64,000 nucleotides of DNA. Source: Patescibacteria group bacterium. Its GTDB lineage: Bacteria; Patescibacteriota; Patescibacteriia; UBA1558. This document shows positions 3,089-55,204 of the stretch, piece by piece. The position numbers and the translations under genes are program-made. Under the pieces are notes generated by a model. It had not been told where the DNA came from. It saw only the letters and a list, made by a program, of their open reading frames with translations, and searched no databases. Numbering within the stretch: position 1 is the first letter of the stretch; each line of letters starts with the position of its first letter. The stretch is from the NCBI GenBank assembly GCA_016784445.1, contig JADHUR010000001.1, positions 19,464-83,463 on the forward strand, read 5' to 3'.

Positions 3089-3523
3089 CTATTCAACTAG
3101 GAAATTAAATCTACTAAATAGCCAAATATGCTCAGATTGAAGCTCTTTATAAATACCAATCGCTTCTTCTCTATAACCATTTAAATCTCTACTGAATGCT
3201 AAGACCAATTTTAAATGTAAGTCTTTCATATCAGCTGGTATATGAGCTATGCTCAAAATTTTCTCCCTTATCTCTTTTATGGCATCATCTCTAGTTAAGG
3301 ACTGTAATGCAATCTCTTGCTGATACTCATACAAAATATTACTTAAATCATCTTGATAAGTTTCAAGCATTTCAGTAGGACTTAAAATAACTTTATTATC
3401 TGGAATATTTACAGATAAATTAGCTGGATCATCATAGCTATCATTTTCACCAATAATAATAAAAACTAATACTCCTGTAAGTACTACTAAAATTAGAAAA
3501 AAAGTAAATTTTGTTTTACGCAT
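3089..3523 (-). CDS. hypothetical protein with N-terminal TM anchor
   Basis: An ORF with a single N-terminal hydrophobic helix, tightly packed between its neighbours. Confidence 0.35.
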   Translation of the reverse strand: MRKTKFTFFLILVVLTGVLVFIIIGENDSYDDPANLSVNIPDNKVILSPTEMLETYQDDLSNILYEYQQEIALQSLTRDDAIKEIREKILSIAHIPADMKDLHLKLVLAFSRDLNGYREEAIGIYKELQSEHIWLFSRFNFLVE

Positions 3524-3526
3524 AAT

Positions 3527-4267
3527 TTATTGTTTTTTAGTAAATCCCTCAAATGCTCTTAATACTTCAAGAGGCATTGCAAATATAACCGTATTAGATT
3601 GATCAGAGGATAAATCATTAATAGACTGTAATGTTCTTAAATGAAGTGCTCCTGGAGACTTGCCTAATATATCTGCTGCTGCTCCCATATTATCTGCTGC
3701 AATTTTTTCACCTTCTGCTTTAATAATAACTGCTCTCTTTTCTCTCTCTGCTTCTGCTTGCTTTGCAATTGTTCTCTTCATGTCTTCCGGTAAGGAAATA
3801 TCTTTAAGTTCAACATTATCTACCTGTATACCCCAAGGATCAGTTGCTTTATCTACTGCAATCTTAATTCTGTCAGATATTTCATCTCTATTAGATAATA
3901 ATTCATCTAAATCTACTTCACCCACTGTATTTCTCATAGTAGTTTGTGCAAGTTGAGTTATTGCATAATAGAAATTCTCTACCTCAATAATAGCTTTTGC
4001 CGCATCAGATACTTTATAATAAATAACGGCATTAATTTGTGCAGAAATATTATCCTTTGTAATTGTCTCTTGATCCGGAACATCAACAGCTTTTACACGA
4101 ACATCAACTTTTTTCATGGATTGAAAAATTGGTAATACAATTCTCCAACCTGGTTGCATAGTTCCTGAATATTTACCTAAAGTAAACTTAACTCCTCTTT
4201 CATACTGATTGATCTGACGAATACTAATCAGAATAATAAATACTATAATTCCAATAATGTAATACAT
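3527..4267 (-). CDS. SPFH/band-7 (stomatin/prohibitin-like) membrane protein
   Basis: N-terminal TM followed by the typical SPFH core (ERGVKFTLGKY...VDVPDQETITKDN...QTTMRNTVGEVDLDELLSNRDEISDRI) and a C-terminal coiled-coil AKQAEAEREKRA. Confidence 0.85.
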   Translation of the reverse strand: MYYIIGIIVFIILISIRQINQYERGVKFTLGKYSGTMQPGWRIVLPIFQSMKKVDVRVKAVDVPDQETITKDNISAQINAVIYYKVSDAAKAIIEVENFYYAITQLAQTTMRNTVGEVDLDELLSNRDEISDRIKIAVDKATDPWGIQVDNVELKDISLPEDMKRTIAKQAEAEREKRAVIIKAEGEKIAADNMGAAADILGKSPGALHLRTLQSINDLSSDQSNTVIFAMPLEVLRAFEGFTKKQ

Positions 4268-7478: not shown

Positions 7479-7482
7479 AGCT

Positions 7483-8724
7483 TTAATCTAAATATTTTTT
7501 ATTCTTAAGCTTCTCCGGTAAATATGTCTGATCTTCTTTATAATCATGATCTGGAGAATATTTATAACCATCACCATAACCTAAGTTTTTCATAAGCTTT
7601 GTAGGCGCATTACGAATATGTAATGGTACTGGCAAATGCATAGTAGCTTTAACATCTTGTTTAACCTTATTATATGCTCTATACAATTCATTACTCTTCT
7701 TACATTTTGCCATATATACAACAGCTTGCGCAAGGGCTAGTTCACACTCAGGCATTCCAATATTATGACAGGCATTATGAGCTGTTACTGCTTGAACAAG
7801 TGCTTGTGAATTAGCCAGGCCAATATCTTCTGATGCAAATCTAATTAATCTCCTGGCTACATATAATGGATTCTCACCAGCCTCTAGCATTCTACTAAGC
7901 CAATATAAAGAAGCATCAGCATCTGAACCACGCATACTCTTATGCAGGGCGGATATAATATTATAATGCTGCTCTCCATCTTTATCATAATATAGATTAC
8001 TATTCTGTATAGCTTGCTCAAAATCGTCTTTAATAATGCTATGTGGTCCTTTTCCCTTAGACTTAGTTAAAACTGCAAACTCGAGTGCATTTAAGGCCAC
8101 ACGGGCATCTCCAGATGCTAGACTAGCTAAATATTTAAGATCTTTTAACTTAATATTCATATCATGCTTTCCTAAGCCATTAACCTTATCTTTTAAAGCT
8201 TTCTTTAATATCTTTACAATATCTTCAATCTGCAGGGGTTCTAATACAAAAACCCTACAACGAGAAAGTAAAGCAGAAATAACTTCAAAGGACGGATTCT
8301 CTGTAGTTGCTCCAATTAAAGTAATTATTCCCCTTTCCACATATGGTAAAAGACCGTCCTGCTGCGCTTTAGTCCAACGATGTATTTCATCTATAAAAAG
8401 TATAGTTTTCTTCTGATGATGCTTTAAATTATCCTGAGCATTAGCAATAACCTGCTGCAAATCTTTCTTACCACTTGAAACAGCAGATAATTGTATAAAT
8501 TCTGAATTTGTCTTATTAGCAATAATAGCAGCCAGTGTTGTTTTACCAGTACCTGGTGGTCCCCAGAATATCATAGATGGTAATTGATCATTAGCAATTG
8601 CTTGCCTTAATATTTTATCCTTAGCTACAATATCTTTTTGACCAAAAAACTGCGTCCAATCATTAGCCCGCATTCTATCTGCCAGTGGTCTTGCTTTTAA
8701 TAAATTGTTATCAAATAAATCCAT
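7483..8724 (-). CDS. rarA: replication-associated recombination protein A (AAA+ ATPase RarA/MgsA)
   Basis: Walker A GPPGTGKTT, Walker B ILFIDEIHR, sensor LLSRCRVF, and the RarA C-terminal helical domain. Confidence 0.9.
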   Translation of the reverse strand: MDLFDNNLLKARPLADRMRANDWTQFFGQKDIVAKDKILRQAIANDQLPSMIFWGPPGTGKTTLAAIIANKTNSEFIQLSAVSSGKKDLQQVIANAQDNLKHHQKKTILFIDEIHRWTKAQQDGLLPYVERGIITLIGATTENPSFEVISALLSRCRVFVLEPLQIEDIVKILKKALKDKVNGLGKHDMNIKLKDLKYLASLASGDARVALNALEFAVLTKSKGKGPHSIIKDDFEQAIQNSNLYYDKDGEQHYNIISALHKSMRGSDADASLYWLSRMLEAGENPLYVARRLIRFASEDIGLANSQALVQAVTAHNACHNIGMPECELALAQAVVYMAKCKKSNELYRAYNKVKQDVKATMHLPVPLHIRNAPTKLMKNLGYGDGYKYSPDHDYKEDQTYLPEKLKNKKYLD

Positions 8725-8783
8725 ATATCTTTAATTATCGTAGCACAAACATAAAAAAAGTACTATAATATTATTAGGAGGTA

Positions 8784-9176
8784 ATGAACCTTAATAATGG
8801 AGGTGTTATCATGTTACAATTAGTTGGTACAGATCCATTTTTTATGTCTATTGACGAGTTTGATGAGGTAGCAATGAAAGGACTGGATTCATTTCAATCT
8901 GGATTGCTTAAATTAGCGGGCTTTGTCCCTATTCATGAACTGGATCAAGGATCGCAAGATGGCTGGAATTTATTTCAGTCTGCACTACGCAAATCTGCTT
9001 CAAGTTTGCCAAATTTCAGTATTGATGGACGTATGGCCGAGCGCCATACAGTACGTTTTTCTGAATTGTTCAACGATAGACCACTGGGCATTACATTAGA
9101 ACAACAACAGTCAGCTGTTGCTGAACTTATGATATGCTTAGATCCAAAAATTGCATTACAAATAACGCAAGGCTAG
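8784..9176 (+). CDS. hypothetical protein (GC-richer stand-alone gene)
   Basis: AGGAGG SD upstream and a terminator hairpin downstream; no recognisable motif. Confidence 0.45.
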   Translation: MNLNNGGVIMLQLVGTDPFFMSIDEFDEVAMKGLDSFQSGLLKLAGFVPIHELDQGSQDGWNLFQSALRKSASSLPNFSIDGRMAERHTVRFSELFNDRPLGITLEQQQSAVAELMICLDPKIALQITQG

Positions 9177-12428: not shown

Positions 12429-13673
12429 TTATTCATAACGTAATGCTTCGACTGGATTAAGCTTTGCTGCTTTACTTGCCGGATATAGTCCAAAGAATAT
12501 TCCAATTGCCACACTAATACCGACACTTAATAATATTGAACTAATACTTACAATAAACTCCCAATGATAACCTAAATAATTTGCTACTAAGGCTATAAGA
12601 CCTGCTACAAATGCTCCAATAATAATACCAATAGCTCCTCCCACAAAAGTTAAGGTAATTGCTTCTACTAAAAATTGAGTAGTAATAACAATAGGTTTTG
12701 CACCAACTGCCTTCCTAAGACCAATTTCTGCCGTTCTTTCAGTAACGGATACAAGCATAATATTCATAATTCCTACTCCACCAACAAGAAGTGCTATTGC
12801 TGCTATTGCTGCTAAAAAGAAATTGAGAGCCCCCGTTACAGACCCTAGTACATCTAAGGCTTGAGCTTGTGACCTTACCGAAAAATCATCTATACCAGCT
12901 TTATCAATATCATGCTGGTCGCGAATTATACGTTTCACTTCCTCAATAACAGCTGGCACATTCTCTTCCTTATCTATTTGGAAGCGAGCGGAAGAAATAT
13001 GATTAATACCAAGCATGATCTTTTGAGCTGTTCTAAGTGGTATATATACCTGATTATCTAAATCTCCAAAAAAAGTAGAGCCTCTTTCCTCTACTACTCC
13101 AACTACTCTAAATATTTCTTTTTTTATCTTAATTTTCTTATTTAATGGATCAATATCCCCAAATGTATCAAGAGCTGCTTGATAACCAAGCACTACAAGT
13201 CTAGACAGTCCTTTATCTTCTACTTCTGTATACCAACGGCCAGATATTAAATTTGCATTCTCTACAATAGGATAAGACTCTGTTGTACCAACAAATGTAG
13301 TATCTACTTTCTGATTCTGATAAACAATATTAGCAACACCTTGCACATATCCAGCACCAGCTACAATAGCATTTGTTGAATCATTATTTAAAATGGCTTC
13401 TAAATCATCGAGTTGAAGAGTTGTTACTGTAATACCCATAGCGGATGCAGGTGGACCTTCATCATCCGAAGCACCAGGTAGTACTGAAACTAAATTCGAA
13501 CCAACACTCTCTATCTCATTAAATATAAGGCTTTGTGCTCCAGCACCAACTGACAGAATCATAATAACACCAGCTACACCAATAATTATTCCAAGCATAG
13601 TTAAAAAAGACCGCCATCTATTGATGTTCAGACTTTTTATCGCTGCTTTAAATAATCCAAGTATAACCATCAC
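12429..13673 (-). CDS. ABC transporter permease, MacB/FtsX family (second copy)
   Basis: Same architecture as its neighbour (LRKAVGAKPIVITTQFLVEAI). Confidence 0.85.
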   Translation of the reverse strand: MMVILGLFKAAIKSLNINRWRSFLTMLGIIIGVAGVIMILSVGAGAQSLIFNEIESVGSNLVSVLPGASDDEGPPASAMGITVTTLQLDDLEAILNNDSTNAIVAGAGYVQGVANIVYQNQKVDTTFVGTTESYPIVENANLISGRWYTEVEDKGLSRLVVLGYQAALDTFGDIDPLNKKIKIKKEIFRVVGVVEERGSTFFGDLDNQVYIPLRTAQKIMLGINHISSARFQIDKEENVPAVIEEVKRIIRDQHDIDKAGIDDFSVRSQAQALDVLGSVTGALNFFLAAIAAIALLVGGVGIMNIMLVSVTERTAEIGLRKAVGAKPIVITTQFLVEAITLTFVGGAIGIIIGAFVAGLIALVANYLGYHWEFIVSISSILLSVGISVAIGIFFGLYPASKAAKLNPVEALRYE

Positions 13674-50790: not shown

Positions 50791-51357
50791 TTAATCTGAT
50801 TGCAAGAATTTCTGATAATCCAAGTCATTTCTAATAATTTCTTGAACTATATGCCCTCTCAACCAATTAGCCTTTGTTTTACCAGAAACAGAAGTCTTCC
50901 ATCTTAAATATCTTTCAATTCTTGGAGTAATTCGCCAAGTAAACTTAACAGATGGCGTGTCCCATCTAGAATCACCATTCTCAATTAAGTCTAAAAACTC
51001 CGACACCTTTGTCTTAATATTACAATCATTATAGTGTTTAACAATTAAAAACTTAGAAACATCTTTATTATTCTTTATAAATAACAATTCATCGGGCAGT
51101 GGTTGTCCCTTTTCAAGTAAATACAATATAGGACGCTTTTGAGAAATAGCTAAGGCAATTAAGTATCCCGCATCCTGATTATTCTCTCCTCCAGCTATAA
51201 TAAGCCCATCAAGTCTTGAAAAAGATATATTATTAGATATATTACTCTTGTCATTCTGAGTAAAAACAATTACGCCAAGATCAGACAAAACTCTATCGAT
51301 ATCAAATATCTTAGATTGAGAATTATTATTAATATTTGAACTTAAGAATAATTTCAT
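50791..51357 (-). CDS. hypothetical protein, possibly NDT/SLOG-like Rossmannoid fold
   Basis: LDGLIIAGGENNQDAGYLIALAISQKRPILYL loosely resembles the deoxyribosyltransferase motif but has no Glu at the catalytic position; a weak call. Confidence 0.3.
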   Translation of the reverse strand: MKLFLSSNINNNSQSKIFDIDRVLSDLGVIVFTQNDKSNISNNISFSRLDGLIIAGGENNQDAGYLIALAISQKRPILYLLEKGQPLPDELLFIKNNKDVSKFLIVKHYNDCNIKTKVSEFLDLIENGDSRWDTPSVKFTWRITPRIERYLRWKTSVSGKTKANWLRGHIVQEIIRNDLDYQKFLQSD

Positions 51358-52271
51358 TGTTTTATAGTAAATATCTTTTTAAATTCCATAGTAGACTTAG
51401 ACTGTGCCAAACACCACATCGTTCTAATTATCATCATCTCCCAAGACATTAGTGATGTAATAATATAATTACTAGGTAGTGGATTTTCTCTTACTATCCC
51501 AAGTCTGTTATATATTATAATTGGTTTATTCCTAAAGTTTTCTTTAAGCCATAAAATATCATTATCCAGAAGTCCGTCTGTATGAATACTTTTAATTATT
51601 AAAGCTTTACTCTTTTTTAAAACAGCTTTATGTTTATCCCAAGCAAAACCAGGGTGTAAATAAAATACAGATAAATTATTATTAAACTTATTTATAAACT
51701 CAACATCTCTATTTTTCTTCTTTGGCTTGGCAAGTAATTCTAAACTAAAATCTACTGTTGCAATATATTCTCCTGTTAAGCTATCAAATGAATTTAAATG
51801 TGAGACACTTACCTTTCTAGCAAGAGAAGCCTGTATGGCTTTCTGTCCATAGACTAACATCACGTCACTAATATTACTGTTTATAAGCTGCAAGGCATTT
51901 ATTAAATTAGTCTTTAATGATAAATCAGATAATTTTTTAAACTTAAAACCACCGCCTGAAAGTAATGCGGTGGTAAATACTATTGGTTTATAATTTTTAA
52001 TAAAGGCTGTATCTGTAGCTACTGCTGAGTATATTAAATTATCTCCCTTAGCAACAATCACAAACCCATCATATCTATCATAATTACTATATATTGTATC
52101 ATTTATAGCAAGCCAAGACTCCAATTGAGAACTGCCTGTTTTAATATGTAATGGTAATGTTACTATCTCAGCTAGAAGGTCTAGTTCGGGCATTTTAGAG
52201 GCTATTAAATCAGCCTGCTGCAGGCTATTTCTCATATCTAAATAGATTATTAATACCCTATTCTTAGCCAT
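51354..52271 (-). CDS. L-asparaginase/glutaminase-fold protein lacking both catalytic threonines (probable pseudo-enzyme)
   Basis: YDRYDGFVIVAKGDNLIYSAVATD...NYKPIVFTTALLS aligns with AnsA [24 protein letters not shown]...NLGKPVIVTGSQ. The N-terminal TGGTIGM box is replaced by YLDMRNS and HGTDTM by AKGDNL. Confidence 0.55.
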   Translation of the reverse strand: MAKNRVLIIYLDMRNSLQQADLIASKMPELDLLAEIVTLPLHIKTGSSQLESWLAINDTIYSNYDRYDGFVIVAKGDNLIYSAVATDTAFIKNYKPIVFTTALLSGGGFKFKKLSDLSLKTNLINALQLINSNISDVMLVYGQKAIQASLARKVSVSHLNSFDSLTGEYIATVDFSLELLAKPKKKNRDVEFINKFNNNLSVFYLHPGFAWDKHKAVLKKSKALIIKSIHTDGLLDNDILWLKENFRNKPIIIYNRLGIVRENPLPSNYIITSLMSWEMMIIRTMWCLAQSKSTMEFKKIFTIKQ

Positions 52272-52338
52272 TTTATTGAATTGTACCCTTTTTAATATTA
52301 AGCGACGGCGCTTATATTCACGACGGCTTAATAAAGCA

Positions 52339-52368
52339 ACTTAGCACCAGTTAAATATATTGTCAAGT
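52339..52368 (-). promoter_or_regulatory. candidate promoter TTGACA-N17-TAAGTT for the long minus-strand gene train
   Basis: Reverse-complement reading: ttgaca (52363-52368), a 17-nt spacer, taagtt (52339-52344), about 70 nt upstream of the 52271 start. Confidence 0.3.
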
Positions 52369-52410
52369 ATAAAGGTAAAATAAAAACCCTTTTAATATAA
52401 AGGGTTAATA

Positions 52411-52432
52411 TGGTTCGGAGGCAGGGATTCGA
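52411..52432. repeat. 22-bp direct repeat identical to the 3' end (T-loop to CCA) of the tRNA-Gln gene at 53469-53490: att-site-like
   Basis: tggttcggaggcagggattcga occurs at 52411-52432 and again at 53469-53490; the first copy is preceded by a hairpin aaccctt-taatat-aagggtt. Confidence 0.6.
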
Positions 52433-52451
52433 TGTCAAGAAGCAGTAAATA

Positions 52452-53396
52452 CTAACCAGTCTGCTTAAAAACTCTCATCCAATTATCATAGAATATTTTC
52501 TTAACAAGCTTCCTATCTAATCTTTTAAGTAAATACTCTTCTATTCCGTTTAAAACTAATACATCTTTATGGCCACCCAAGAATGGATACTCTTTTAAGG
52601 GATAAATATCTGAACTAATTGCAATACAATCTTCCCCCCATTTATTTAAGATATATTCTATATGATTATAGAACTCATCAAAACTTCCCTTGTCTCCGAC
52701 ATCTTCAGAAAGAGGAAATAAAGATATAACTCCTCCTCTATCAACAATCAATTGGATTTCTTGATCAGTTAAATTATGTACTGAATTATGAACAGAACGA
52801 ACATTTCCGTGTGTAGAAACAATCATACCATTGAAATTTTTAGCTACATCTACCACAGATTTTTCACTCAAATGAGCAATATCAATAATTAATGATTTAT
52901 CATTCATTCTTTCTAGTACATCAAATCCTTTTTGACTGATTCCTTTATCTTTTTTTGAACCTCTTCCGCAAGCATAATCATTGTCATCTTCCCAAGATAA
53001 ACCAAAAATCCTTACTCCTAAATTATAAAAATAGTCAAAATCATCTGGACTGCGAAAACACTGAAGTCCCTCAATAGTATAAATACAAGAAATATCATTT
53101 GATTTTTCATCTATCTCACTAAATTCAGCAATAGATTTAATTGCCGGACTAAGAGAAAAAAGATTTTCACACCAATAATAAAAACTAGTAACTCCATCAT
53201 AAAAGCTTGTTTTAAGAAAATCCTTATCAAAATACAAAGACACTCCTAAAACCTTAACTCCTGCTTCTTTAAGTTTTTCTAAAGAAACTGGCAAATCCTT
53301 CTTAGAATAAAAATCATTCTGACTATACTTAAAATGTTTAAATATATCTGCTATATCTATATGAGTGTCAATTTTCTGAATTCTATTATTTTTCAT
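52452..53396 (-). CDS. metal-dependent amidohydrolase, M19 (renal) dipeptidase-like
   Basis: N-terminal IDTHIDI (His-x-Asp metal ligands), an internal DIAHLSEKS motif and a TIM-barrel-like length; the family assignment is tentative. Confidence 0.45.
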   Translation of the reverse strand: MKNNRIQKIDTHIDIADIFKHFKYSQNDFYSKKDLPVSLEKLKEAGVKVLGVSLYFDKDFLKTSFYDGVTSFYYWCENLFSLSPAIKSIAEFSEIDEKSNDISCIYTIEGLQCFRSPDDFDYFYNLGVRIFGLSWEDDNDYACGRGSKKDKGISQKGFDVLERMNDKSLIIDIAHLSEKSVVDVAKNFNGMIVSTHGNVRSVHNSVHNLTDQEIQLIVDRGGVISLFPLSEDVGDKGSFDEFYNHIEYILNKWGEDCIAISSDIYPLKEYPFLGGHKDVLVLNGIEEYLLKRLDRKLVKKIFYDNWMRVFKQTG

Positions 53397-53468
53397 AAAT
53401 ATACAATATTTATTTAATATATAATTATAATATCAAAAAACCACCTATTTTCATAGATGACCTTTTAA

Positions 53469-53542
53469 TGGTTCGGAGGCAGGGATTCGAACCCCAATTG
53501 GCTGGACCAGAACCAGCAGTCCTACCATTAGACGACCTCCGA
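53469..53542 (-). tRNA. tRNA-Gln (anticodon CUG), CCA encoded
   Basis: Reverse complement TCGGAGGTCGTCTAATGGTAGGACTGCTGGTTCTGGTCCAGCCAATTGGGGTTCGAATCCCTGCCTCCGAACCA: acceptor TCGGAGG/CCTCCGA, anticodon stem GCTGG/CCAGC with loop TTCTGGT, T-loop TTCGAAT. Confidence 0.7.
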
Positions 53543-53554
53543 TCGTTAAACATT

Positions 53555-55204
53555 TTAACTGAAAGCTGTTGCTACGTCAACTTTTACATCCTGATCAATA
53601 GGTTTTTCTTGAATCGAATTAGTTTGATCACCTTCAGGTGGTAATTCTTCAATGAATACTTCCCAAACTACTCTTTTCTCATAATCTTTATCTACAATTC
53701 CTTGAACAGTTACCTTCTCGCCAATATGATTACTAATTATTTCTTCCAAGGCGTGCTTTTTAGAGCTATCTTCTAAGACTTCACCATGAAAAGAATACTG
53801 AAAGCCAAAAGTAAATAAACCATTCTCATAACTTACTGGCCTTGCTACCTTCATCAAAGCAGACAAAGAATTATTATATTTCTTAACTTCAATTAAAATG
53901 TCCAGCCACTTGGGCTGGATATCATCTAACTTTAATTTAGATATATTAGCGGGCGGCGACTCAAATACTTTTTCACTTTTTATCTCAGGTTCTTCCTTAG
54001 ATTCCTCTTTAGGAACTTCTTCTTTCTTATCTTCCTTGGGAGTTTCCTTAGGAGGCTTAACAGTAGTATCTGGTTTTGACTGATCATCATTTATAGAAAT
54101 ATTTTCACCCTGACACATAATTACAATAGCAAGTTCTATTGGTAAATGTGGAATTGAAGATAATTTAATTTGTTGAAACTTAGCAAGTAATGTATCTATC
54201 ATAAATACTAAATGATCAGCAGTGATTTTCTCTGTCTGATTAGTCATATTTTTCTGAACTTCTTTATCGAAATTTTGTTGTAATATTCTATTGTCTGCAG
54301 CTAATTTAAATAATAATAACTGCCTTAAATAGTCTATCCAGTCCATAGTTAGCTGATTTAAATCAATTCCTTCCATTAATGATTGATTTAATAGATTCAC
54401 GCCATCAGCTGCTGACTTTTTTATAATATATTCTGTTAAGGATGAAACGATCTTAATATCTGATCTTGGCAGGACAAGTGATGCTTGATCAAAAGTAATT
54501 TTTTTATCAGATAATGTTAATACTTGCCCCAAAACACTTAATGCATCTCTTGCTCCACCTTCTGCTTGTTTAGCAATAGCCTGAAGTACATCATTACTCA
54601 CTTCATATTTTTCTGATATACAAATACCCTCCATCCATTTAACCAAATCTGCAGTTGCAATACGATGATAATCAAATCTCTGACACCTTGAAATTATTGT
54701 TTCAGGAACTTTATGAATTTCTGTAGTAGCTAAAATAAAAAGAACCTTAGCTGGTGGTTCTTCTAATGTTTTAAGTAATGCATTAAATGAAGCAGTAGAT
54801 AACATATGCACCTCATCTATAATGAAAACCTTTGTCTTACCGGAACTTGCAGATATTCTAGAGGCTGCAATAATATTCTCTCTTGTTTGATCTACCTTAG
54901 TTTGAGAAGCAGCATCTATCTCTACCATGGATAATGATTTACCTTCATCTACTTCTTTACATGCATCACATTTATTACACGGCTCAGACTCATTGTCTTT
55001 TCTATTCTCACAATTAACAGCCTTAGCAAGTATTCTGGCAATAGTAGTCTTACCAATGCCTCTAGGTCCATTAAATAAATAAGCGTGAGCTAGCTTATTA
55101 CTTGCTATCTCATTTTGCAGAGTAATCTTAATATGATTCTGATTGACTACATCAGCAAAAGATAGGGGTCTATACTTATTATATAATGTTTGTTTTGATT
55201 GCAT
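53555..55204 (-). CDS. dnaX: DNA polymerase III subunit gamma/tau
   Basis: YRP...GPRGIGKTTIARILAKAVNCEN, zinc module C..C..C, Walker B FIIDEVHML, sensor SRCQRF. The start is taken at MQSKQTLYNKYRP (ATG at 55202-55204); the tracked ORF has 14 extra codons. Confidence 0.9.
   Translation of the reverse strand: MQSKQTLYNKYRPLSFADVVNQNHIKITLQNEIASNKLAHAYLFNGPRGIGKTTIARILAKAVNCENRKDNESEPCNKCDACKEVDEGKSLSMVEIDAASQTKVDQTRENIIAASRISASSGKTKVFIIDEVHMLSTASFNALLKTLEEPPAKVLFILATTEIHKVPETIISRCQRFDYHRIATADLVKWMEGICISEKYEVSNDVLQAIAKQAEGGARDALSVLGQVLTLSDKKITFDQASLVLPRSDIKIVSSLTEYIIKKSAADGVNLLNQSLMEGIDLNQLTMDWIDYLRQLLLFKLAADNRILQQNFDKEVQKNMTNQTEKITADHLVFMIDTLLAKFQQIKLSSIPHLPIELAIVIMCQGENISINDDQSKPDTTVKPPKETPKEDKKEEVPKEESKEEPEIKSEKVFESPPANISKLKLDDIQPKWLDILIEVKKYNNSLSALMKVARPVSYENGLFTFGFQYSFHGEVLEDSSKKHALEEIISNHIGEKVTVQGIVDKDYEKRVVWEVFIEELPPEGDQTNSIQEKPIDQDVKVDVATAFS

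Follow-up and report, generated by a model that had tools for sequence, protein, structure and literature searches.

Organization of the tRNA-Gln locus

The locus described here lies within a 64-kb stretch of DNA (hereafter, the window) from a low-GC (0.32) bacterium of the Patescibacteria, or candidate phyla radiation (CPR), and consists of a tRNA-Gln(CTG) gene followed by a short insert with a single gene, that of an M19-family dipeptidase. Along the minus strand, the tRNA gene, which is intact and carries an encoded CCA, is succeeded by a terminator-like hairpin, a promoter-like site, the M19 open reading frame (ORF), 19 bp of non-coding DNA, a displaced fragment of the tRNA 3′ end, and the old tRNA terminator (Table 1). 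The dnaX gene and a gene for a VirD4/TraG-like ATPase are located 5′ of the tRNA, and 3′ of the old terminator are the promoter and leader of an operon of asparaginase-like, ferredoxin, NiFe-hydrogenase, and glycolysis genes.

An earlier reading of the sequence (the original prediction) had noted that the 3′ 22 nt of this tRNA recur about 1 kb away, and we found the recurrence to be exact. The 22-mer, TGGTTCGGAGGCAGGGATTCGA, is present at 52411–52432 and 53469–53490, with no third copy in the window even when up to 3 mismatches were allowed, and it had no match in 100 dinucleotide-preserving shuffles. One additional shared flanking base extends the direct repeat to 23 bp, identical at 23 of 23 positions. 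The repeat begins at the second base of the T-loop (TTCGAAT) and takes in the 3′ strands of the T-stem and the acceptor stem as well as the encoded CCA. Measured between their starts, the two copies are separated by 1,058 bp, 1,035 bp of it unique DNA, and the displaced fragment is in direct orientation, on the minus strand like the intact tRNA-Gln gene. No such fragment was found for the second tRNA of the window, tRNA-Glu. Nor is the 22-mer a generic motif, a concern raised with the original prediction: it had 0 matches in IMG/VR, as did a 20-mer with R at the variable base, and its matches in the JGI metagenomes were confined to three contigs, in all three of which it belongs to a tRNA-Gln gene. 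A fragment-only pattern (VTCGAATCC...) had 0 matches in the JGI metagenomes.

Between the copies there is one gene and no integrase, as originally described. The sole ORF is a full-length match to PF01244, with non-coding flanks of just 72 bp and 19 bp that leave no space for an integrase gene in the insert. The hairpin directly 3′ of the tRNA has a folding energy of –13.1 kcal/mol (z = –5.75), and 0 of 200 shuffled sequences folded equally well. The promoter-like site is weaker evidence, as such matches are no commoner in the region than in shuffled sequence. The terminator beyond the displaced fragment folds at –10.1 kcal/mol, and the same hairpin is found 3′ of the tRNA in the relative described below. 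Judging from its sequence, the insert may be a compact expression unit, made up of a replacement tRNA 3′ end, a terminator, a promoter-like site, and an intact M19 gene.

Table 1. Features of the tRNA-Gln locus, in window coordinates (L001 is the contig of the empty-site relative described in the next section)
Feature	Coordinates	Strand	Basis
Intact tRNA-Gln(CTG)	53469..53542	-	ARAGORN and Rfam agree (Rfam tRNA model, 53.8 bits); sequence identical to L001 tRNA-Gln
Repeat copy 1, attL-like core (tRNA nt 53–74 + 1 nt past CCA)	53468..53490	-	
Repeat copy 2, attR-like core (displaced original tRNA-Gln 3′ fragment)	52410..52432	-	Followed by the same sequence as 3′ of the L001 tRNA
Segment missing from the empty site (1,035 unique bp + one repeat copy = 1,058 bp)	52433..53490	-	blastn against L001
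Insert-borne terminator-like hairpin and T-run, directly 3′ of tRNA CCA	53432..53467	-	RNA fold; sequence absent from L001
Promoter-like site ATGAAA-16-TATTAT with TG, 5′ of the M19 ORF	53427..53454	-	Consensus match alone
M19-family (renal-dipeptidase-like) metallodipeptidase gene, 314 aa, apparently intact	52452..53396	-	PF01244
Original tRNA-Gln intrinsic terminator, now 3′ of the M19 gene and displaced fragment	52385..52406	-	Terminator scan

The empty site and the direction of the event

With the asparaginase-like neighbor as a probe, we recovered a contig of a close relative, L001 (GCA_041294325.1), in which this protein is 98% identical to that of the window and the flanking DNA is 94.5%, 94.0%, and 90.3% identical over ~11.5 kb. 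In L001, dnaX and an identical tRNA-Gln gene are immediately followed by TATTAACCCTTTATATTAAAAGGGTTTTT, which is the sequence found 3′ of the displaced fragment in the window, and by the operon leader. L001 5788–5900 holds the tRNA with a single copy of the 23-mer and the same terminator, and no M19 gene. When aligned by blastn, the two flanks of the window mapped to L001 5632–5862 and 5840–6071; since these intervals overlap by exactly the 23-mer, the window has one precise 1,058-bp insertion that duplicates the tRNA end. The original prediction had proposed to look for a tRNA-Gln followed directly by the asparaginase-like gene. L001 has this empty site, with the old terminator between the two, and it favors the integration scar proposed there.

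The filled arrangement (52201–53700) is 100% identical in four contigs from separate assemblies (L005 to L008) and is therefore no assembly artifact. Given this identity, the 0 of 100 shuffles that contained the 22-mer, and an empty site that comes from a strain ~6% diverged, we rejected chance or misassembly as the source of the repeat and regard its probability as negligible.

The M19 gene is missing at the locus in each of the relatives that share its flanks, namely L001, L002 (neighbor protein 82% identical), and L019 (76–78% nucleotide identity), and among the M19 homologue matches none could be traced to the 860-kb contig that carries L002. The economical reading is a gain of M19 in the lineage of the window. 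Alternatively, the fragment could be what is left of a second tRNA-Gln gene: an ancestor would have had the order tRNA-Gln, M19, tRNA-Gln. Deletion of the first 52 nt of the second gene would have given the arrangement of the window, and recombination between the two tRNAs would have removed M19 in L001. Such a remnant would look identical to what we observed, as tRNA-Gln(TTG) genes in other CPR genomes have the same 3′ 22 nt as tRNA-Gln(CTG). This history, however, requires two independent deletions, one of which ended exactly in the T-loop; L002 and L019 likewise have no M19 at the locus; the nearest relatives recovered are without M19; and the sequence after the fragment is that found after the tRNA in L001, which is more simply explained by one insertion. 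We consider a second tRNA-Gln improbable.

More improbable still is retention of the 23-mer 3′ of M19 for a function of its own, such as a tRNA-like signal for 3′ processing or stability of the M19 mRNA. In its favor, the copy is perfect (23/23) and sits between the stop codon and the terminator. Against it, neither the T-stem nor the acceptor stem has its 5′ strand in the fragment, folding of the region is not significant (z = +0.64), comparison with L001 shows fragment and terminator to be nothing more than the ancestral tRNA end, and the origin of the duplication would be left unexplained.

The M19 cargo and its other genomic contexts

The 314-aa product of the insert matches Peptidase_M19 (PF01244) with an E value of 1.9e-52 (178.9 bits; cut-off, 26) over profile positions 3–319 of 319. 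Residues H12, D14, E109, H175, H196, and D263 are invariant in 12 CPR homologues (alignment A1) and align with the same residues of PDB entries 3neh and 3lu2, which are Listeria structures of the renal dipeptidase family. We take these conserved HxD, E, H, H, and D positions to be the zinc-ligand and catalytic positions of the M19 family, in which HxD, a bridging Glu, and two His bind a binuclear zinc center and an Asp follows toward the C terminus, and because they are kept, the enzyme looks intact.

The protein was found 100% identical on 11 contigs from public assemblies. In a search of 5.8 billion proteins, its closest homologue, from a Moranbacteria genome, was 72% identical. A scan of genome contigs for M19 loci returned 4, and across 10 distinct CPR contexts the neighbors of M19 differ; in five of the 10, the gene is ≤2 kb downstream of a same-strand tRNA gene (Gln in the window, Asn in L009/L012, Asp in L011, Lys in L013, and Lys and Asn in L016/L017). 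The insert as a whole unit was seen nowhere else among the M19 loci compared. M19 relatives were not found in IMG/VR, and plasmids contained only distant homologues (<35% identity). With its nearest homologue at 72% in Moranbacteria, and with variable neighbors that place it near a tRNA in half of its contexts, the cargo looks acquired.

Some M19 homologues are found inside arrays of small single genes (L011 3209–7651 and L009 5997–7022). In these two arrays the spacers share a conserved motif, TCTGAACAyATCCACyAGrGGGAGC, and a promoter-like site is apparently present at each gene, and a terminator-like hairpin at some of them. Read on the opposite strand, the motif is the start of a conserved ~30-aa peptide, LPLVD[MV]FR..., with synonymous differences between copies, a pattern suggestive of a protein-coding target gene whose 3′ ends were displaced; no full-length gene bearing the LPLVDMFR motif was present in the loci examined. 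The L011 array begins at the last bases of an intron-containing tRNA-Asp gene and has a 31-nt exact repeat at 3321 and 4338. A different array, at L015 3004–5950 between two ABC-2 permease genes, contains a repeat of ~115 nt that is present four times (mean column identity in the alignment, 74%). Each copy precedes one gene, these being the genes for an APH-type kinase, a PsbP-like protein, a 185-aa ORF of opposite orientation, and M19. A 213-aa ORF runs with its 3′ end into the first copy, and the repeat has neither a significant fold nor an Rfam match. No recombinase was detected by Pfam and PHROGs among the unknown ORFs of L009, L011, L013, L015, and L001.

In other CPR lineages, an M19 homologue is linked with genes for a D-Ala-D-Ala ligase and an Rce1-like protease (L024 673–3412), and in L018 and L022 (5342–6954) M19 is tightly coupled to a gene for an HD-domain (YfbR-like) phosphohydrolase. 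These linkages are hints about the substrate.

Recurrent inserts at tRNA ends in other genomes

The 3′ end of tRNA-Gln carries other inserts in other genomes. L019, which is syntenic with the window 5′ of the tRNA, has a 134-bp insert 3′ of tRNA-Gln followed by GAATCCCTGCCTCCAAACCA (20 nt, one mismatch), 154 bp in total (13437–13590). An unrelated genome, L020, has two perfect tandem 194-bp units (3273–3660) at its tRNA-Gln(TTG), each ending in ATCCCTGCCTCCGAACCA, the last 18 nt of the tRNA. L021 is closely related to L020; its insert (1071–1192) is a different one, and the fragment there, CCCCGTCTCCGAACCA, has diverged. The displaced fragments in these three genomes are 16–20 nt long, and across the four lineages the fragments start in the T-loop region within ~6 nt of one another. 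Homology between the inserts of L019 and L020 is seen in a shared GGGATTCGAAC-GGGCAG...CTGCCC that surrounds two hairpins; in one hairpin the sequence differs but the pairing is maintained.

A second kind of site is seen in L013 (4800–4990), where the 3′ part of tRNA-Lys, from the anticodon loop onward, recurs in diverged form 47 bp 3′ of the intact gene, with 20 nt inserted in the T-loop region of the copy. It represents an older scar, located at the other canonical subsite for attachment. Around CPR tRNA genes, then, displaced 3′ fragments with starts in the T-loop or the anticodon loop are common.

Several further features of these tRNA ends were observed. The inserts of L019, L020, and L021 can each be read as a T-arm (GGGAT...ATCCC) with the loop replaced by a structured insert, which in L019 and L020 is a three-way junction; that of L019 folds at –52.7 kcal/mol (z = –4.26). 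All three contigs have a conserved stretch of ~170 nt, CGTCGTAGTCG...CTACTCCTTT, 3′ of the last fragment. The only Rfam matches at or near any insert were tRNAs, and a 27-mer from downstream of the L019 insert had 0 matches in IMG/VR. A sequence of the L019/L020 units, GGATTCGAACGGGCAG, had 24 IMG/VR matches, all in GC-rich phage and none in a tRNA or with the unit, and we treated these as chance.

Copies of tRNA 5′ ends were also found. Upstream of the intact tRNA-Gln gene, L019 (13003–13360) has a 5′ pseudo-copy of it (nt 1–46) that is broken twice by a 29-nt GC-rich palindromic element, CCCTGGCCKCGTCCCGCGTCYGCGGGCAGG, with a small GIY-YIG-like ORF next to it. In L016 (3959–4940), a copy of the first 17 nt of each of tRNA-Lys and tRNA-Asn lies ~140–210 bp upstream of that same tRNA, fused to shared sequence with the blocks GCTCAATGAGGGGTTAGTGATCCCGAG and TAGTCCCGCGAAACCCGCTG, and a GIY-YIG gene stands between the two tRNAs. 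GIY-YIG genes are thus beside tRNA genes at L019 ~13149–13360, L016 4343–4597, and L009 4306–4596.

Origin of the insert

We favor, at a probability of about 0.6, insertion of the 1,035-bp M19 unit into tRNA-Gln(CTG) by site-specific recombination of the tyrosine-integrase type. The horizontally acquired unit would have entered the tRNA gene by a crossover in or beside the T-loop. The incoming DNA would have brought its own copy of the last 22–23 nt of the tRNA, and the tRNA gene is regenerated in full. It would also have brought a terminator serving the tRNA, the promoter-like site, and the dipeptidase gene, all of them visible in the sequence, with their functions presumed. The original tRNA 3′ end was pushed ~1 kb downstream, where, together with the old terminator, it would now close the M19 transcription unit. 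Going by this anatomy, the enzyme was probably a tyrosine integrase; a circular intermediate and present expression of M19 are likewise presumed.

A displaced 3′ fragment is the signature by which the Islander study recognizes elements in tRNA genes, and it lists three crossover subsites: the anticodon loop, the T-loop, and the junction of the T-stem and acceptor stem (PMC4383910). Because the fragment starts of four lineages cluster in the T-loop, a canonical subsite, the integration reading is supported. Precedents are on record, both for elements that have kept their two att sites without an integrase (PMC5704250) and for partial tRNAs that degenerated elements have left scattered about (bioRxiv 10.1101/2020.12.28.424599).

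A number of observations weigh against integration of this type. The insert encodes no integrase, and a Pfam scan of 15 window ORFs found none. The reconstructed attachment site of the element (attP; ...ctgcttcttgaca / TCGAATCCCTGCCTCCGAACCAT / taaaaggtcatc..., opposite the bacterial site attB, ...GGGGTTCGAATCCCTGCCTCCGAACCATATTAACCC...) has only ~114 bp of non-coding DNA, compared with the ~250 bp quoted by Islander (PMC4383910), and the sequence left of its core is cttgaca rather than T-stem, so that the inverted repeat for core binding is missing. IMG/VR and the JGI metagenomes yielded no circular form, no second copy, and no element with attP. The fragment starts vary by 2–4 nt between lineages, and one common crossover point is not demonstrated. 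DNA similarity with the other M19 loci ends at the limits of the coding sequence. Finally, composition is unremarkable: a comparison of GC content and codon usage with the genome had been suggested as a sign of foreign origin, and M19 stayed within the spread of the window genes in GC, GC3, and codon usage (GC, 0.292 vs. a mean of 0.321, sd 0.028; codon-usage rank, 23 of 58). This last result is uninformative rather than contrary, because likely donors are also low-GC CPR bacteria.

The missing integrase and the attP left half, which is not like a T-arm, speak for an integrase-free origin. Foreign DNA, for example taken up by natural transformation or used in repair of a double-strand break at the tRNA gene, could have been joined by a homologous crossover via a donor tRNA-Gln on one side and an illegitimate joint in the recipient T-loop on the other, as in homology-facilitated illegitimate recombination or repair triggered by a homing endonuclease. 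The observed repeat is exactly what would result if the left crossover fell in the tRNA and the right junction at nt 53, with the tRNA 3′ end duplicated as a by-product. GIY-YIG genes adjoin tRNA genes or tRNA 5′ fragments in L019 (by the tRNA-Gln 5′ pseudo-copy), L016, and L009, and repeat-less single-gene indels are known in the lineage (the 440-aa gene of L001 and the DnaJ-domain gene of L002; see below). An illegitimate junction, however, does not explain the T-loop position, yet four lineages start within ~6 nt of one another; no GIY-YIG gene is near tRNA-Gln in the window; and a donor with tRNA-Gln directly followed by M19 was not seen among the 10 M19 contexts. Overall, we consider an integrase-free origin unlikely, while giving it some weight.

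If the unit was inserted by an integrase, it could be cargo left from an island that has otherwise decayed, or it could be a minimal unit that owes its movement to an integrase acting in trans; under both sub-cases the element is an integrase-less mini-island resembling a cis-mobilizable element (CIME). The choice is close to even, with a slight lean toward the decayed island. The small inserts of L013, L019, and L021 show that near-empty intervals are possible, and scattered remnants of degenerated elements have been described in Prochlorococcus islands (bioRxiv 10.1101/2020.12.28.424599); both speak for decay. Mobilization in trans is favored by the perfect repeats, the tidy order of terminator, promoter-like site, and gene with no pseudogene debris, and the repeat-bounded single-gene arrays of other genomes.

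A broader possibility is that the CPR harbor a class of minimal promoter-bearing single-gene cassettes, along with non-coding units of even smaller size, which enter tRNA genes in trans, in the segment from the T-loop to the 3′ end. Such a class would be the counterpart, at tRNA genes, of integron cassettes. Pointing in this direction are the four different inserts at the same tRNA-Gln end in four lineages, the tandem 194-bp pair of L020, the conserved three-way-junction motif common to the L019 and L020 units, and the occurrence of M19 in repeat-separated arrays with no recombinase nearby (L011, beside tRNA-Asp, and L015). We regard a class of this kind as distinctly doubtful.

Comparison with known elements

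Like the islands cataloged by Islander (Hudson, Lau and Williams 2015, PMC4383910), the element is bounded by an intact tRNA gene and a cognate 3′ fragment in the same orientation, has an identity block that starts in the T-loop, a recognized subsite, and has an empty site in a close relative. Unlike them, it has no integrase gene (PF00589), which Islander requires, and it carries one cargo gene in ~1 kb rather than many, with little non-coding DNA for an attP. CIMEs are decayed integrative and conjugative elements (ICEs) or IMEs (integrative and mobilizable elements) which retain attL and attR and have lost their integration and transfer genes (PMC5704250). The locus resembles them in its intact and identical att-like repeats, its location at a tRNA 3′ end, and its lack of mobility genes, but no parent ICE or IME or cognate integrase is known for this genome, no pseudogene of a larger element remains, and the host belongs to the Patescibacteria, whereas the described cases are from Firmicutes (PMC5704250); CIME-like is thus a description of its sequence.

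The islands that tycheposons build in Prochlorococcus (Hackl et al., bioRxiv 10.1101/2020.12.28.424599) offer a third parallel, also in a streamlined genome, with cargo beside a tRNA, partial tRNA copies that mark past integrations, and reuse of the same tRNA site; here, in contrast, no tycheposon-type tyrosine recombinase or replication module was seen at the locus, and a single gene with perfect repeats takes the place of part of a multi-element island. The unit shares with integron cassettes its size (~1 kb), its one ORF with minimal non-coding DNA, and the presence of a recombination site at one end, but the boundary here is a tRNA 3′ end and not attC, and the unit has its own promoter-like site and terminator. 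We rejected an integron cassette, as the insert ends have no inverted repeats, the fold at the 3′ end is not significant (z = +0.64), and no IntI or attI was found; the association with an integron integrase is also absent, the neighbors being dnaX and the asparaginase-like operon, with no recombinase among the scanned window ORFs. A transposon or insertion sequence was rejected too, in view of the lack of a transposase and of terminal inverted repeats, and of a duplication that is 23 bp here vs. 16–20 bp at this site in other lineages, where a fixed length would be expected.

The event is therefore of a familiar kind, an unusually small integration scar without an integrase. CPR genomes are tiny and their routes of gene acquisition are little known; events of this sort have rarely been resolved to the nucleotide in the phylum, and this is a cleanly resolved gene gain, with filled and empty sites defined at single-nucleotide precision. 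Classical targeting of tRNA genes is at work in this phylum, and what it delivers, or leaves behind, can be as little as one gene; pipelines that demand an integrase within the island miss such units by design. Should these units turn out to be mobilized in trans, they would offer streamlined genomes a simple means of carrying accessory metabolism, the cargo here being a dipeptidase.

Other variation at the locus

Two further single-gene differences were found in the relatives. In L002 (4990–5882), a different single gene, for a 162-aa DnaJ-domain protein, lies between tRNA-Gln and the operon; it has its own promoter-like and terminator-like sites, the usual terminator is replaced by a different one, and there is no tRNA fragment. 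L001 has a 1,434-bp single-gene insertion (7480–8913, corresponding to window position 50792/50793) between the gene for a 188-aa protein and the ferredoxin gene; it encodes 440 aa, matches neither Pfam nor PHROGs, and is not flanked by repeats. Genes are therefore often gained or lost singly in this lineage, sometimes with no repeats left behind.

The operon leader itself (window 52272–52365, minus strand) has a direct repeat, GCCGTCG-N13-GCCGTCG, 3′ of a TTGACA promoter. The repeat is kept in L001 to L004 (with N12 in L004), even where the protein of the relative is only 44% identical. It showed neither covariation nor an Rfam match, and it looks more like a protein-binding operator than an RNA structure.

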